Assembly: GCA_964016885.1 (NCBI GenBank)
Contig: OZ024743.1
Location: 258,168,001 to 258,232,000, forward strand
Origin: Eledone cirrhosa
Lineage: Eukaryota
Direction of reading: 5' to 3'
Length of the DNA stretch: 64,000 nt
The notes beneath the pieces are model-generated. The model was not told where the DNA came from and searched no databases. It saw nothing but the letters and a program-made list of their open reading frames with translations. This document shows positions 3,357-61,625 of the stretch, piece by piece (position 1 is the first letter of the stretch; every line of letters begins with the position of its first letter). Made by a program: the position numbers and the translations under genes.

Positions 3357-4173
3357 GTCCATTTACAATTGTTTCGCTACTCCATATAATGTTTCTGGAT
3401 CAAATGATCATTATTGATCTGGTTCAGATGAAGAAAAGTAGCTTAGGTAAAAATTATGGAGCGGCTGGTTCTTCAGAACTTCAAAAGAGATAATGAAAAT
3501 ATTGATAACGATACGATGGAATAAGGAATATAAAGTAAGGTAAAGAAAGATGGTTACATGAATGTAATGTTCCATATATTGGTATTTCACGACGGTGTGC
3601 TGGGCCTATCTATTGTCTGCTATAGGCAAGCATTATTCTTCTGTCGAGGCTGTATTAAGCAAGATCTGCCTATGCGTAACAAAATGGCCACCTAAGGACA
3701 TTTACCTTACCAATTAGTGACGGGTTTCAAGGGAAGTAACTCCTTGAGAATTTAGAAATTGTAGGTCATTTATAGCTAAGAAGTGCTAATGAGCTTAAGT
3801 GAGAGACAGTGTAGTGGAGGTAACGTATAATTATCCAAGTCTGGGTTAAATATTTAACATGTTAGCTATAAGTAAAAGTGAGATTAGATGACTATGTTGG
3901 GTTGAATATTCTGTTGGCGAAGAAATTTGCCCTTTGATGTTTAGTAAGGTAAATGTCCTTAGGTGGCCATTTTGTTACGCAAAGGCAGATCTTGCTTAAT
4001 ACAGCCTCGACAGAAGAATAATGCTTGCCTGTAGCAGACAATAGGTAGACCCAGGACACCGTCGTGAAATACCAATATATGGAACATTACATTCATGTAA
4101 CCATCTTTCTTTACCTTACTTTATATTCCTTATTCCATCGTATCTTTATCAATATTTTCATTATCTCTTTTGA
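3357..4173 (-). mobile_element. ORF-less Penelope-type pseudo-LTR with an inverted partial copy
   Basis: Inverted arms of about 230 bp (3481-3710 and 3944-4173, few mismatches) abut a minus-strand hammerhead-like motif. Confidence 0.55.
3361..3479 (-). ncRNA. Degenerate type I hammerhead with long stem II
   Basis: Minus strand reads gtt-CTGAAGA-acca-gccgctccata...tatggagtagc-GAAA-caattg-TA-aat; stem III is the palindrome ACAATTGT. Confidence 0.5.
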
Positions 4174-4690
4174 GTCCATCGTGAGGATTGCCCCGCCCTC
4201 TTCCTTTAGCCGGGAAGGGCAGGCAGATTTTATCTGTCTGGTGGCCATGGCGAAAGAGATAGTATGATGGACACGTTTGAAAGGGCTGAAGACGAGCACT
4301 TACCTCTTCGGTGATGCCTGATCGAAAAGGAAAATCAGGGTAGAGAGGGAACTGCTCTCTCCCCAGCATTGTGTTGAAAGAAGGGTGAGAGAGGCAAGAA
4401 TGGCCCGAGTGAATGGGCCTACTCTGAGTATGTGTCTGTAAATTAAAGGTGGAAAACTGGGAGAGGGCACTTGCCCTGGTGGTCAGGGTCACTGTGACTT
4501 TTTAATGGGCTTTCTCCACGAATGTCCCTCGGAAGTCTCCCCCCTATTGGGGAATTTTTTCATTGTTCTATTATTACATTCTTTGTTTCTTTTTTTTACA
4601 CGCAGAAATGCCCTTTTGTACCGTCCTGTATTGTCCTGTACTGTCCTTAATGTCTACTTTGTGTAAACCCTTGTGGTTAATAAAGAAAGC
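4172..4690 (+). mobile_element. 3' fragment of an L1/Tx1-like LINE
   Basis: Decayed C-terminal reading ESIVRIAPP..FICLVAMAKEIV*WTRLKG..RKIRVERE, then a T-rich 3' UTR ending near AATAAA (4679). Family call is from resemblance only. Confidence 0.45.
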
Positions 4691-4713
4691 ATTATTATTA
4701 TTATTATTATTAT

Positions 4714-5060
4714 TGTTCTTTGAGTCTCAGTCATTGATGTTAGTTAACTGGAAAGTTTGTTGAAATGAATATCAAGCCACTACCTGCAACCTTAGATATT
4801 CAGGACGTATCGGAGGGTTCTTGCTGTTCCCAGCAAGCATGCCTTTTGAAGCGTTCCAAAAAGCGTGGCGGGGCCAATTTTCTTTAACCATCCCTGGAAA
4901 CCTTTTGAGATAGTACCTAGTGCGCCTATGATAATCGGGACCACTTTGACTTCATGGCAATTCCAAATCCTTTTTACCTCCCACTTTAAGTCCTGGTATC
5001 GGTTAATTTTCTCCCTCTCCTTCTCTTGTACTCTCGTGTCGAATGGGCAGGCCACATCCA
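4714..5060 (-). mobile_element. 5'-truncated second copy of the R4/Dong element, inserted in a (TAA)n tract
   Basis: Near-identical to about 2981-3325 (DVACPFD...LRYVLNI* plus 3' UTR). (TTA)n lies on both sides, at 4691-4713 and 5060-5131. Confidence 0.92.
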
Positions 5061-5139
5061 TTATTATTATTATTATTATTATTATTATTATTATTATTAT
5101 TATTATTATTATTATTATTATTATTATTATTCCGTACAT

Positions 5140-5336
5140 AGGGCGGTGGATTGGCAGTATCGGTAGAGGGTCGGACGCCATGCTTTGATGCATAGAGTTA
5201 CGGCCCTTGCCATTCTGAGTTCAAATCCCGCCGGGGTTAACTTTGCCTTTCATCCTTATGGGGTCGATCAAATAAAGTACCAGTAATACACTGGGTAATT
5301 GCTGGCCTTGTGCCAAAAGTAGAAACAATTATTATT
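5140..5336 (+). mobile_element. tRNA-derived SINE, family A (resembles octopus OR-type SINEs)
   Basis: A-box-like TGGCAGTATCGG, B box GAGTTCAAATCC, body GCCTTTCATCCTTA.GGGGTCGAT..AATAAAGTACCAG; many copies in the window. Confidence 0.8.
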
Positions 5337-58105: not shown

Positions 58106-58430
58106 ATATATATATATATATATATATATATATATATATACATATAAATATATATAAATATATATATATATTAATTAATATATATATATATATATATATT
58201 AATTTATATATATATATATATATATAGTATTAAGGATACTATTTATGGTTATGTATATACTAAAACTGTTTATAGTTATATATATTTTAAACCCTAAACA
58301 GTGAAAGACAGTAATTTATTACTACCTTATTACCAGTAAGATAAATAGCTCAATGTAATAACATCAGTTGTTCTACAGAGCAGTTATATAGAAATCACAT
58401 GAATCAAAGTTCTGTTCAAACCATTCATTA

Positions 58431-58475
58431 GCTTACAATTGTTTCGTCCAAACCGAGGTTTGGGATCTTCGGAGC
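58431..58475 (-). ncRNA. Hammerhead, C4 variant
   Basis: gct-CCGAAGA-tcccaaacctcggtttggac-GAAA-caattg-TA-agc. Confidence 0.65.
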
Positions 58476-60857
58476 AATTTTTCAATGATTGTTTACATAC
58501 ATGACCTCCTTTCCAACACATGTATATATCGATGCACAGTGACATCCATTATAATATTTTTGCATGGCAATTTAAATTCAAAAATTAAAATCATATTAAA
58601 ACATATTAAAACAAAATTAAAGTTAATATACAACATCGGCATTTTACGAAGATAATGCAAGAGGATAGTTTGTTAGTCAGTTGAAGTAGTTAGTGCATGC
58701 AATAGTTACACGTGGGGCATGCACGTGTTTCTTATTTATATATGATTATTGTGCAGCAAGGTGTGATATGCAATACAAGCACTTTAAGCGGGTAATCAAG
58801 AGTATTACGGGGGTTGTAGTGGTAAAGTATTTTTTGTGTATGATAAAGAAGTTTGTGTGCAGAGAAATATTATAAATGAGAAGCAAAATAATGTTATGGT
58901 TTTTGTATACACTACCATTTTCACAATCCAGGAAACGCAATATATAGTTTATATGTCCTTCACATAATTAACGATGATTCAGTATTGGATGTTTGATGTA
59001 TTAAGTTAAATTATTACAGCTTGTTGCGGCTCAGTGTTCTTTAATCCAATTTTATAGAGCAGGTTGTTTTTGTTGAGAGAATTTACATCATTTTATTTTC
59101 CGGAAGTATGTGTGTGATTAAGGGGAGTTAATGCGTGAGGGGATGTAACTAGCTGATTTCTATAACTAAATTTATTATTCCAATGTACATTAAAAGGTGT
59201 CTCAATTGAGTCCCTTATATATATGGTTATATACAGTTTCCAAATTTAAGTATCCTATCTTTAAATTACAGTCTACTCTATCAATAAGTAGTAAAGGTAT
59301 CTATATTAGGATGATTACTCCTTATCATAGAGTGCTACAACTGAATATTCCATACGAAGAGTCAGATCTCCATATCAATGTTCTTTGTAAATGTAGTCCA
59401 CTCACAGAACCTGACAGGGTCTTATTAGAACCATGTCTATATATAACCCCTGGTAAGCTCTGGGTCAGCGTATGGCTGATTGCATGGCAAAGTTAAATAT
59501 CTCTAGGGTAGACCAAAGAGCAGTTCTCACTTACAATGTCATTAACCTGTCTATCAAGTTATACATGTATGTATAACTCATATACCACTTACATAATTCA
59601 TTGTACTCAACATATAGGTTATATAGCTCTTTTATGTTAATAAATTAATCTTCTATTTATCTAATGATAGCACTCCATACATACAACAACATTTGCACAA
59701 ATAATTCAGTGTTTAAAGTTTACATATAATTATATAGTGATATAATGTAGTCTAAGTAATTGAAGGTAATTATACTAAAAGTAGGTGTACATGGGGATAT
59801 TTCTAGGGTAAAAGGTTTTAGATAGATGTCACGAATTGTGTTAAGATAGGGTGGATCATTGAGTGTGGAGTTGCGGTGTAAGGTGTGCCCTTGAGGTGTG
59901 TTGCTAGAAGTGGTGATGGGTTCAAGTCTGACATTGCTATATATTGGGTTTAAAGTTTTGGAAGGAGTGTCGGAAGCGGTGCTGGCATGACGCGAACACT
60001 TCTGATTTTTTATTAAGGAGGTTATGGTTTGAGAAGATAATAGTATGGGTCTCTAGTAGACAGGGGTTACAAAATTTATTAGGTGGTTTGTACGATGTCG
60101 CCTTACATATCACTTCCCATTTAAGTGTATAAGATCTATTTTTAGTTTTTAGATAGTGTATGTAGCTAGATAGTGAAGTGGAGTTGGCTAGACTGTGTTT
60201 TTTGAAAGAATGGAGGTGCGAAGTGTATCTGGTCTTGAAGCAGTTTGAAGTAGAGCCTATATAGGTTTCAGAAGAGTTGCTAGTTGTGACGGTTCATGAG
60301 TATATGATATCCTTGATTAAGCATTTTTTATCTAAAGGGCAGGTTCTATTAGATCTACAGTTACAATTATTTTGGAAGTTAGCCTGCCGGTTATAATGTT
60401 GTGTAGAAGTCTGGATGGTAGCTGTAGGATTATGGTTATGGGGGTTGTCGTTCCCAGCGTTATTGCTTACACTAGTGCTATTACTATTATTACTATTGTT
60501 ATCAGGGTTAGTTGATATAATGTTATTTTGAAGGTTGACACCCTGTTGTGATTTAGTTTGTTGGAAGTAAGAATTAATTTTTCTTTTATTGCTACTAGCT
60601 ATGTGGTATGCTATGTTAGGCATGGTAGAGTAGGAGATTTTAATTGTGTTTAAAAGGCTATGGTACTTGTGGCCAGATGGGAAGTTTTTATCTAGGAGTG
60701 AGAAGAAAGCCTTAGGTAGGTTGGTAGAGACGTTTAGATTGAAAGGAGGGTTGAAAAATGTATTATTTCTTCTTCTATTTTTGTTGTATTATAATGTATT
60801 ATTTCTTCTTCTATTTTTGGAAAGGAGGTCATGTATGTAAACAATCATTGAAAAATT

Positions 60858-60902
60858 GCTCCGAAGACTCCAAACATCGGTTTGGACGAAACAATTGTAA
60901 GC
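60858..60902 (+). ncRNA. Hammerhead, C4 variant, in the inverted pLTR
   Basis: gct-CCGAAGA-ctccaaacatcggtttggac-GAAA-caattg-TA-agc. Confidence 0.65.
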
Positions 60903-61154
60903 TAATTAGCTTACAATTAATTATAATTAATGGTTTGAACAGAACTTTGATTCATGTGATTTATATATATATATATATATATATATATATATATATATAT
61001 ATATATATATATATATGTAGATAAATCTACCAAGAGTTTACGGTAGTGTCCAATCCGTATGAAGAACTCAATGTAATCCGGATATCATGGAAAGAAGAGA
61101 TGCAATGAAAAATCACTTTCGGTGAAAGATAAACGGAATACAGAGTCAAGATAG

Positions 61155-61625
61155 AATATTAAAAAAATAATGAATAAAACAATGAAACAGTTCCTTATAT
61201 TAAACAAAAAAAGTTCATTATTTAACGATCGTTTCTAGGATATATATGTGTTAGAATTGGCATGCATATTCAACAGATCTATGTACAAAATTATACAAAA
61301 TTATACAAACTATCAAAATTAAATATACATACCAAACACATATATATGCCGTCTTCAGAAATAATATTTATAATAATAATTATAATAATATATAATATTA
61401 TTATAATATTTATAATAATAATTATTTCTGAAGACGGCATATATATGTGTTTGGTATGTATATTTAATTTTGATAGTTTGTATAATTTTGTATAATTTTG
61501 TACATAGATCTGTTGAATATGCATGCCAATTCTAACACATCCTAGAAACGATCGTTAAATAATGAACTTTTTTTGTTTAATATAAGGAACTGTTTCATTG
61601 TTTTATTCATTATTTTTTTAATATT
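61155..61625. ncRNA. About 205-bp-arm palindrome of two back-to-back long-stem-II hammerheads (minus 61217-61365, plus 61421-61563)
   Basis: attattt-CTGAAGA-cggcatatatatgtgtt...aacacatatatatccta-GAAA-cgatcg-TT-aaataat. The plus copy lacks 6 nt of stem II. Confidence 0.7.

Follow-up and report, generated by a model that had tools for sequence, protein, structure and literature searches.

The window (the whole 64-kb stretch of Eledone cirrhosa DNA analysed here) holds Penelope-like elements (PLEs) encoding a reverse transcriptase (RT) and a GIY-YIG endonuclease, an ORF-less retrozyme, short insertions and head-to-head palindromes, together with their hammerhead motifs (Table 1). The type I layout (core, helix II, GAAA, helix III, UH and helix I) is found at 15 of the 15 coordinates listed in a sequence-only reading of this DNA, each with a C3-A9 (or U3-A8) catalytic core and with GAAA and UH arranged in type I order; two further hammerheads, at 45136 on the minus and 46775 on the plus strand, had been overlooked. 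The 15 sites fall into 10 sequence families, as the estimate of about ten had anticipated, and the hammerheads at 58472 (minus) and 60861 (plus) have a C4 core.

Table 1. Features of the window, with the position of core residue C3 and the number of exact genome matches to each family pattern (pLTR, pseudo-LTR).
Feature	Position	Strand	C3	Genome matches	Remarks
Hammerhead F3476	3358..3486	-	3476-	1,405	H17 at 3364; Hydra-type PLE 3' end
Minimal hammerhead F6509	6507..6538	+	6509+	5,060	ACGU helix III palindrome, 2-bp helix I
Hammerhead F22304	22198..22308	-	22304-	330	84-nt branched helix II, 8-nt palindromic helix III
Hammerhead F34471	34467..34509	+	34471+		In short insertion (about 34188-34657) with inverted arm
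PLE P1	36522..38421	+			Frameshifted RT + GIY-YIG remnant; Hydra-type DKT, CxCX5C
U3-A8 hammerhead F39547	39542..39635	+	39547+	49,273 (3' half)	Terminates the 1.1-kb 3' UTR of P1
Head-to-head pair of F39547 3'-half copies	39761..39898	.			Without the CUGANGA half
PLE P2 3' pLTR	40398..40697	-	40655-	10,521	Hammerhead F40655
PLE P2 ORF	40924..44578	-			RT + GIY-YIG, one frameshift, Asn-rich insert
PLE P2 5' pLTR	44532..44819	-	44777-		Hammerhead F40655; 92% direct repeat
Additional hammerhead	45085..45137	-	45136-		Weak helix I; relatives in L035
Head-to-head palindrome, two F45903 hammerheads	45848..45947	.	45891-, 45903+	29,603	Joined at helix I 5' end
Palindromic insertion F46775	46602..46936	+	46775+	388	Additional hammerhead, 79-nt helix II; inverted arm truncated in core
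Second, truncated P2 copy	49464..50909	-	49787-		Hammerhead F40655
ORF-less retrozyme F51250	50926..51726	-	51250-	24,977	Hammerhead 51214-51256; inverted 5' arm, in (TA)n
Truncated Hydra-type PLE P3	58385..60969	-			GIY-YIG 59946-60788; 1.5-kb 3' UTR
P3 C4 hammerhead (F60861)	58431-58475	-	58472-	4,378	
P3 inverted-arm hammerhead (F60861)	60858-60902	+	60861+		
Head-to-head palindrome, two F61428 hammerheads	61151..61629	.	61358-, 61428+	8,115	

With a relaxed hammerhead descriptor (score >=14), the window yields 11 matches, while 100 local dinucleotide shuffles give 0.85 +/- 0.95 (maximum 4) and the reversed window none at that score, which excludes a chance origin of the motifs. Nine of the 11 are sites on the earlier list; the match at 25456 (plus) looks like a low-complexity false match and that at 47193 (minus) is uncertain. 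Six listed sites are confirmed by family membership and not by the descriptor: those at 3476, 34471 and 49787 score below 14, and those at 6509, 45891 and 45903 were not caught because their helix II is weak. Compared with their family, about five of the 15 window copies are damaged, the lesions being G16.2 to A with a broken palindromic helix III (6509), a 4-nt insert after A9 (3476), a mismatch in helix II (34471 and 49787) and a 6-nt deletion (61428). The expectation that standard searches would miss such motifs held up: no Rfam hammerhead family (clan CL00010) was found in the window at gathering score and, when three sites were rescanned singly, one matched Hammerhead_HH9 at 15.3 bits (gathering 52) and the other two gave no hammerhead match in Rfam.

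Genome-wide, hammerhead motifs occur at ~100 per Mb, or roughly 3×10^5 in total (estimate range 200,000–400,000), a scale for which we found no earlier description in the literature searched. The window's 11 matches per 64 kb compare with 7.05 on average in draws from the genome (P = 0.14); the density that had been singled out is real against chance, but it is a property of the whole genome and not of the window. The exact family patterns have 330 to 49,273 genome matches each and their reversed controls none, and F34471 has many relatives among the sampled loci. Helix III, which was absent from the criteria that picked the motifs, is fully self-complementary in 48 of 96 genome motifs against 2 of 69 decoys, and this palindromy is retained across unrelated families. 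A(A/T)TAAA, likewise not a selection criterion, lies at most 30 nt downstream in 28/96 motifs and 3/69 decoys.

Seven of the 10 families form the 3' ends of RT+GIY-YIG PLEs (five Hydra-type, two Neptune/Nematis-type) with 3' UTRs of 0.3–4.3 kb; the earlier attribution to PLEs, with palindromic helix III, is borne out. Pairs of pLTRs flank ORFs in P2 within the window and at L204, L322 and L310-312 elsewhere. The Hydra-clade set comprises F3476, F39547, F45903, F60861, F61428 and F46775, as judged by DKT, a CxCX5C linker, CxxC/CxH, a C-terminal endonuclease and no CCHH. These motifs were read in P1, L204, L322 and L208, and for P3 in the linker and endonuclease only, while F46775 was assigned solely by the tblastn likeness of its upstream endonuclease; the placement is by motif and not by tree, the homologue search having returned mostly unnamed matches. 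F45903 ends an element with a 758-aa ORF (L322); F61428, with a 110-116-nt helix II, ends one with a 4.3-kb 3' UTR and an 830-aa ORF between pLTRs (L204); and F3476, which has a ~94-nt helix II region and a family core with C4, has an endonuclease upstream in 11/30 loci, mostly ~500 nt off. The P2 and L310 proteins (F40655 and F6509) have the CX2-5CxxC linker (CX4CxxC in P2) and CCHH endonuclease of the clades Neptune and Nematis, which are taken together in this assignment; at L310-312 the F6509 pLTRs lie 4.7 kb apart with an RT+GIY-YIG ORF between them. As for the other three families, the link of F34471 is tentative (a Neptune-type endonuclease 256 nt upstream in 1/19 copies, and a helix III of the same type as in F40655), F22304 is without an established ORF link and F51250 is ORF-less.

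The many ORF-less carriers had been read as a radiation of dedicated non-autonomous ribozyme elements, replicating as short units by means of PLE proteins. As a general account this seems to us improbable. Seven of the 10 families have long ORF-bearing copies and end ORF-coding elements, so most such carriers are 5'-truncated 3' ends of autonomous PLEs; moreover, palindrome centres vary from copy to copy, and each palindrome therefore formed at insertion instead of being copied whole. The idea does describe F51250, which is the sole clear ORF-less tandem element among the 10 families: it forms head-to-tail arrays (L314-316, L327 and L329) of 420-502-bp units with a longest ATG ORF of 51 aa and a predicted circular fold of -145 kcal/mol (z = -10 against 60 shuffles). 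F22304 and the hammerhead at 45136, both without an ORF link, and a re-amplified SINE-hammerhead chimera also fit it. Short tandem spacing is absent from the loci of F40655, F3476, F22304, F61428, F6509 and F45903, F39547 was judged not to be short-tandem from its match list, and the list for F60861 holds one short same-strand pair. Among these eight families and F51250, short head-to-tail units of the retrozyme kind would be confined to F51250.

Helix II is paired in the hammerheads. The helix covariation that the sequence-only reading had proposed to test is present in helix I of F45903 (27 double-changed cells) and F51250 (11), with scores reached by 0/500 shuffles in each case and kinship between copies ignored, but double-sided covariation is absent from the long helix II of two families (0/20 and 0/42 consensus pairs). 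The core is intact in 17/18 F61428 copies, the remaining copy being a C4 variant, and near-invariant in the other families except at positions 4 and 7, which vary between subfamilies; U3-A8, a compensatory core pair, is present in several families. In folding predictions, the free folds of families with a long helix II partly sequester the core, and a hammerhead-shaped fold (helix III left out) is less stable than the MFE in 17/17 window copies. In F39547 and F45903 helix III is 4 bp with a longer loop. Most genomic copies are probably inert. A more sweeping reading is that the motifs, especially those with an 80-116-nt helix II, descend from real hammerheads but no longer cut RNA, and are kept as protein-binding or promoter structures. 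The lack of double-sided covariation in long helix II, the competing folds, the loss of half of the core in most F39547 copies and published accounts in which minimal hammerheads cleave poorly and insertion in vitro is independent of cleavage all lean that way; set against the conserved core, the U3-A8 pair and the retained helix III palindromy, we think it rather unlikely.

In three abundant families the 5' ends of the copies are sharply placed, and we found no earlier description of this in the literature searched. Ends fall within one 16-nt window at helix I in 48/82 F45903 copies and 14/30 F61428 copies, and 25/30 F39547 copies stop inside helix II, keeping just 3-25 nt 5' of G12; the samples are the first exact-pattern matches on contig C1 and therefore favour young copies. 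In five other families at most 3 of 28-30 ends share the densest unsaturated window, or the ends are visibly scattered, and those of F46775 are scattered with no pile-up. Each of the three sharp ends is at an initiator-like site, and two of them follow a TATA-like box at a distance of 29–30 nt. In F45903, TATAWATA stands 30 nt ahead of a CCC|AG initiator match, a spacing unchanged in a divergent subfamily (L335), the joint background for the two motifs being 7e-5 (post hoc); in F39547 the TATA-like and initiator-like sites lie within helix II; and the F61428 boundary has an initiator match with no TATA at -30. F60861 has a TATA-like string ~29 nt ahead of C3, yet no pile-up of ends. In the full-length L322 element, the 5' pLTR begins ~10 nt ahead of C3 and so overshoots the proposed +1 by a few bases, a point against that start. 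The boundary recurs whether it is joined to (TA)n, to unrelated DNA or, in one F61428 subfamily, to a SINE 3' end. Head-to-head palindromes number 4,867 exact cases in one family; none of 50 listed junctions, judged by eye, extends at least 8 nt past C3 into upstream sequence, and the two arms are of the same haplotype in 17/24 pairs against 8% across pairs. Head-to-head spacings in F60861 are 200-5,000 nt.

We think it likely that type I hammerheads sit in the 3' pLTR of many PLE families and have spread mostly as short truncated ends, and that the sharp 5' ends of three families reflect transcription starts with RT run-off from uncleaved RNA. It is established that the reverse transcriptase of PLEs is primed at nicked AT-rich DNA and begins synthesis within the RNA, in the tail downstream of the hammerhead; almost every insertion consequently carries the motif. 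On balance, the sequences incline us to the further proposal that an initiator-like site (TATA-backed in two families) starts F45903, F61428 and F39547 transcripts at the helix I 5' end or inside helix II. Priming in the adjoining tail would then yield a run-off cDNA of 70-250 nt, comparable to the strong-stop DNA of retroviruses, and two run-off ends from one template could form head-to-head palindromes by fold-back or end-joining. By analogy with published relatives, the ribozyme would cut slowly, either as a dimer through the palindromic helix III or helped by the element's protein. In vitro, an Anolis PLE begins synthesis internally, accepts unprocessed RNA as template and makes shorter products from 5'-shortened templates (PMC11167929); the internal promoter of D. 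virilis Penelope is TATA-less (PMC2377424), which counts against a TATA-backed start. If the sharp stop is a transcription start, it would show how these elements get copied.

The same elements could instead owe their sharp ends to enzyme or structure, with RT stalling or falling off where the RNA or cDNA forms a hairpin, or with palindromes arising by self-priming on an antisense template, as Arkhipova et al. 2013 propose for the head-to-head palindromes of rotifer PLEs (PMC3846280). The F39547 boundary does lie inside a hairpin arm, and an internal palindrome is the site of F51250 junctions in two cases. We nevertheless consider this explanation unlikely, if deserving of some weight, given the scattered ends of six other families with comparable helices, the constancy of the boundary whatever its partner and the absence, by eye, of any helix I fold-back product (an arm starting right after helix I) among 82 F45903 copies. 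Alternatively, a tandem read-through transcript might be cleaved and polyadenylated just upstream of the hammerhead, which would leave a discrete RNA 5' end, and the downstream fragment would then serve as template for the short copies. At the F61428 boundary a CA is preceded by AATAAA, 8 nt upstream, and followed by GU-rich sequence, and the F45903 box contains TATAAA, a weak variant of the poly(A) signal. However, some F45903 copies carry TATATATA there (L332, L342), the F39547 boundary is without such a signal and, over the families as a whole, enrichment of the poly(A) signal lies downstream of the cleavage site, and we give this route little credence.

Much of the ribozyme architecture has precedent. 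Cervera & de la Pena 2014 (PMC4209133) describe, for the minimal hammerheads of metazoan PLEs, pLTR-borne type I folds, a palindromic helix III, an additional base following A9, the U3-A8 variant and a 2-bp helix I (D. virilis); they also report many families in a genome, copies that are mostly solo and derive from truncated PLEs, and pairs on opposite strands. The minimal hammerhead, U3–A8, the solo copy and the inverted arm have all been published before. The genome studied here differs in its ~3×10^5 motifs, compared with ~9,000 in X. tropicalis and ~4,000 in coelacanth (the descriptors differ and the figures are not like for like), and in helix II inserts to 116 nt against 7-8 bp; C4-core families and sharp 5' ends at the ribozyme go beyond what the sections of that paper drawn on here describe. 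The Hydra-type elements, which supply five of the 10 families, resemble the endonuclease-bearing Hydra-clade PLEs of Craig et al. 2021 (PMC8557442) in DKT, the CxCX5C linker, a C-terminal endonuclease with CxxC and CxH around conserved E and N and no CCHH, (TA)n targets, hammerheads, and an inverted 5'-truncated arm and tail. Those elements are described as generally <3 kb and from few aquatic invertebrates, whereas elements here reach 6-7 kb, with 3' UTRs to 4.3 kb and, in L204 and L322, RWR for RWK.

F51250 is like the non-LTR retrozymes (Cervera & de la Pena 2020, PMC7229834; Li et al. 2026, bioRxiv 10.64898/2026.07.22.740005) in its ORF-less, AT-rich head-to-tail units with a type I hammerhead each, in its strongly self-paired predicted circular fold and in its PLE-rich host; it differs in having 420-502-bp units with a hammerhead that is minimal and has short helices, an inverted arm of PLE type, an offset tail and a (TA)n target. 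Finally, the Penelope pLTRs of Adineta vaga (PMC3846280) and the Anolis Poseidon PAc (Frangieh et al. 2024, PMC11167929) share with the present elements a putative TATA and initiator in the pLTR, palindromes at inverted junctions, solo pLTRs, Asn-rich ORF inserts and AT-rich targets, as well as, probably, internal RT initiation in the tail on unprocessed RNA. In the sections of those papers drawn on, palindromes are ascribed to self-priming and no promoter pile-up of 5' ends is reported; here, by contrast, the ends of thousands of copies cluster to within a few bases of a single site.

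The window is AT-rich, filled with (TA)n and built of retroelement remnants from a host genome of 3.0 Gb. We found a type I hammerhead layout at all 15 places where the sequence-only reading had noticed one, and these sort, as it had claimed, into ten families; about five of the 15 copies carry lesions relative to their family. A strict descriptor demanding a Watson-Crick pair directly after A9 returned no sites and a second version seven. The relaxed descriptor used here accepts C3-G8, U3-A8 and C4 cores and a helix II of up to 150 nt, and scores helix energies. At a score of at least 14 it gave 11 matches in the window, compared with 0.85 ± 0.95 (maximum 4) in 100 local dinucleotide shuffles and none in the reversed window. 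Nine of these 11 coincide with sites already noticed, while the six remaining sites scored low or were missed and are confirmed by family membership. Standard searches do miss such motifs, as had been anticipated: Rfam gave no hammerhead in the window at gathering score, and none appeared among the 150 of 285 matches listed from the gathering and E-value scans. Because the window itself had served to tune the descriptor, it was tested on 79 other 10-kb stretches. Flanking sequence of 200 kb yielded 27 matches (four when reversed), and stretches at even spacing, 590 kb in all, yielded 65 (six when reversed). A possible extra hammerhead, listed in the table by its C3 at 47193, has relatives at two sampled loci (L024, L074) that keep the hairpin and not the full core.

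The net rate comes to 100 motifs per Mb (bootstrap 68-139), which extrapolates from the sampled stretches to about 3.0×10^5 motifs in the genome (2.0-4.2×10^5). The density of the window thus stands above shuffled sequence but not above the genome: a 64-kb draw reaches 11 motifs with P = 0.14, so that the window is typical, and the idea of a locally dense window was dropped. The 103 descriptor matches fall into 51 clusters, 16 of them with at least two members. Probable false matches inside SINEs account for some of the singletons and for one pair, and the descriptor misses weak-helix families. Exact patterns, whose reversed controls gave no match for any family, total 134,050 over ten families including F46775, which is not a count of whole ribozymes because most patterns span the 3′ half only. 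A fragment of F45903 with C3 changed to A sits in a different, near-identical repeat (L250, L254-256, L262, L271, L367), and part of that family's count has therefore spread by another route.

Hammerhead families, named by the window position of C3, with exact pattern matches genome-wide, and other features
Feature	Position	Matches	Remarks
F39547		49,273	
F45903		29,603	
F51250		24,977	
F40655		10,521	
F61428		8,115	
F6509		5,060	
F60861		4,378	
F3476		1,405	
F46775		388	Missed by the sequence-only reading
F22304		330	
Non-LTR element, reverse transcriptase and C-terminal restriction-like endonuclease	14-3249		Dong/R4-like; ends in (AAT)n tail, F3476 adjoining
Inverted recurrence of its 3′ end	4691-5060		
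Inverted arm of F3476	3941-4173		Stops about 4 nt short of the hammerhead core
SINE copies, hAT transposase remnant, LINE remnants	5601-6186, 18757-19739, 13771-17044, 28102-29961, 52182-58104		LINEs of RTE and CR1 type
tRNA match heading a SINE copy	5831-5888		
Penelope-like element P2	40924-44578		
Long Asn-rich insert in P2 ORF	43328-43915		As in rotifer Penelope-like elements
Possible U3-A8 hammerhead	47170-47205 (C3 47193, -)		Palindromic helix III
388-aa frame at locus L318	G000:C1:19366200-19376199, ORF 3719-4883 (-)		Uninterrupted

Two features that were not selection criteria are commoner in real matches than in decoys. Helix III is fully self-complementary in 48 of 96 matches as against 2 of 69 decoys. 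Within 30 nt downstream of the predicted cleavage site, A(A/T)TAAA occurs in 28/96 as against 3/69. The downstream enrichment spans unrelated families in the genome sample (L031-L109). Covariation was found in helix I of F45903 (double-sided changes in 27 cells, 43 sequences) and F51250 (11 cells, 27 sequences). Speaking against selected structure, two long-helix II families show no double-sided changes in 20 and 42 consensus pairs. The F45903 alignment holds 43 of the 59 available copies, most with a junction-replaced helix I being left out. None of 500 shuffles reaches the covariation score in either family; the shuffles ignore relatedness, and the result is support rather than proof. Subfamily core variation is located at positions 7 and 4. 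Also against selected structure, each of the 17 window copies that were folded is more stable when left to fold freely than as a monomer held in the hammerhead shape with helix III excluded.

The suggestion that the many ORF-less carriers form a radiation of elements dependent on Penelope-like elements (PLEs) holds in part. ORF-bearing parents with long 3′ UTRs indicate that most of these carriers are truncated PLE ends, whereas F51250 is truly ORF-less. F40655 is the pseudo-LTR (pLTR) pair flanking P2, and 16 of 30 loci have an endonuclease no further than 342 nt upstream of it; F39547 closes the 1.1-kb 3′ UTR of P1 and F60861 the 1.5-kb 3′ UTR of P3, both also PLEs of the window. Elsewhere, F61428 brackets an 830-aa ORF with a 4.3-kb 3′ UTR (L204), F45903 a 758-aa ORF with a 3.7-kb 3′ UTR (L322), and F6509 the ORFs of L310-312. 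An endonuclease lies upstream of F3476 in 11/30 loci, and one of 19 F34471 copies is linked to an ORF. No such link was found for F22304; an apparent one (L214, L218) was rejected because the stretch from hammerhead to ORF is not spanned by homology. The Hydra-clade motifs DKT, CxCX5C, CxxC and CxH are present in P1, L204, L322 and L208, and P2 and L310 carry CX4CxxC and CCHH. GIY-YIG domains went undetected by Pfam and were identified by motif and tblastn. For the protein of one element, the closest homologue with a name comes from Argonauta hians (42% identity), which suggests that the host is probably an octopod. Among the first 100 F6509 matches listed there are no close head-to-head pairs, unlike in Hydra-type families, and only direct pairs 2.4-4.8 kb apart. 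Locus L328 contains tandem 4.1-kb P2 units with one frameshift in common. The L318 frame, which we take to be alpha-tubulin-like, lies between outward-facing F45903 hammerheads 8.4 kb apart; PLE-mediated capture is possible, as is chance. F51250 forms head-to-tail arrays of 420-502-bp units with no ATG ORF longer than 51 aa. Its circular form is predicted with z = -10, its 5′ arms are inverted and its targets are (TA)n. Taken as a whole, F51250 fits among non-LTR retrozymes.

Since shared palindromes confound all-against-all extension, 5′ ends were mapped with non-palindromic references, and those of F39547 separately with nine full references. In F45903, 48 of 82 copies end inside one 16-nt window at helix I, as do 14 of 30 in F61428. 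Of 30 F39547 copies, 25 have no more than 3-25 nt left on the 5′ side of G12 and are missing half of the core. Six families show scattered ends (F40655, F3476, F22304, F6509, F51250 and F46775); for F3476 and F46775, a suspected hot spot found no support with the non-palindromic references. Judged by promoter consensus strings, the F45903 boundary (shown by a slash) is the A of an initiator match, CCC/AG, 30 nt after TATAWATA, and in a divergent subfamily the box is kept at an unchanged distance. Together the two motifs have a background rate of 7e-5, but they were noticed post hoc. A TATA-like string precedes, by 29-30 nt, a TT/AGT site within helix II of F39547. We lean, by a narrow measure, towards the view that these sharp ends may mark transcription starts. 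Three observations count against this step: F60861 has a TATA-like string yet no pile-up of 5′ ends in the match list or sampled copies, the 5′ pLTR of L322 begins a few bases upstream of +1, and Drosophila Penelope is described as TATA-less (PMC2377424). Stalling or self-priming of the reverse transcriptase could instead produce the ends, and we regard this as fairly unlikely. F61428 has an initiator match at its boundary, no TATA, and AATAAA 8 nt upstream; a polyadenylation cut is accordingly a further candidate for such ends, and a distinctly improbable one. In one F61428 subfamily a SINE 3′ end is joined exactly at the helix I boundary. This subfamily has re-amplified (L187, L189, L190, L198, L200), and L200 has the SINE on both arms. 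The idea that an NUH-like triplet at the F61428 boundary marks another ribozyme cut was dropped, since the triplet is unable to form helices I and III.

Genome-wide there are 4,867 exact head-to-head F45903 junctions with at most 25 nt between cores. Their centres vary between copies, and in 17 of 24 pairs both arms have a haplotype in common, compared with 8% across pairs, which argues that each palindrome arose at insertion from a single template. The centres in L171, L176 and L199 hold two or three short repeats copied from arm ends, resembling slippage synthesis by a telomerase-related enzyme. A PLE protein is reported to nick AT-rich DNA, to begin reverse transcription internally, within the tail of the RNA, to use mainly unprocessed RNA, with 5′-shortened templates giving shorter products, and to assist its own hammerhead (PMC11167929). 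On the start-site reading, a transcript beginning at helix I and primed in the adjoining tail would give a short run-off cDNA, whose fold-back or end-joining would produce a palindrome; priming at the far 3′ copy would give long insertions. The promoter-driven RNA of F39547 would lack half the core, so that only read-through RNA could cut.

These findings bear on the role of PLE hammerheads and on the origin of PLE head-to-head insertions. Our joint reading, drawn from sequence and held tentatively, at somewhat less than even confidence, is that this octopod-like genome may carry the densest reported ribozyme load found, 2-4×10^5 hammerheads (about 100 per Mb) in dozens of PLE families, most of them of the Hydra clade. 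A Pol II promoter would, in three of the most abundant, start RNA exactly at helix I or inside helix II, leaving a half ribozyme and no self-cutting, and strong-stop-like cDNAs, made from uncleaved RNA by the reverse transcriptase of the element, would integrate in their thousands as palindromes. PLE start sites would then be recorded in the genome, and promoter-ribozyme coupling could switch on cleavage for read-through transcripts only. Should the sharp ends prove to be transcription starts, the genomic copies, in their thousands, would read out directly that the template is uncleaved RNA, that priming is internal and that the palindromes derive from run-off cDNA. The thousands of short palindromes could yield double-stranded RNA if transcribed. 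Rfam misses the natural hammerhead variants that this genome holds by the dozen (U3-A8, C4, helix II up to 116 nt).

Much of this has precedent. PMC4209133 describes minimal PLE hammerheads along with the U3-A8 variant, a palindromic helix III, solo copies and pairs on opposite strands; inverted arms, tails and the Hydra clade appear in PMC8557442, and a pLTR with a putative TATA and initiator in PMC3846280. Penelope families are listed in the O. vulgaris repeat paper, where 'ribozyme' does not occur in the main text. Literature searches returned no report of cephalopod PLE hammerheads or start-site run-off, although supplements or Lunse et al. 2017 (possible cephalopod or long-helix variants) may reduce the novelty. 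Published counts of about 9,000 hammerheads in X. tropicalis and 4,000 in the coelacanth (PMC4209133), more than 6,000 in Acropora and 126,247 in the axolotl come from other descriptors, and the 235 Rfam matches in the giant squid from another method, so the comparison is indicative only. PLE-derived retrozymes were already recognised in PMC7229834 and a 2026 preprint, and an ORF-less retrozyme of about 25,000 copies with PLE insertion hallmarks supports a PLE origin of animal retrozymes. Set against these systems, what stands out is the scale and a testable start-site reading rather than the motifs themselves.
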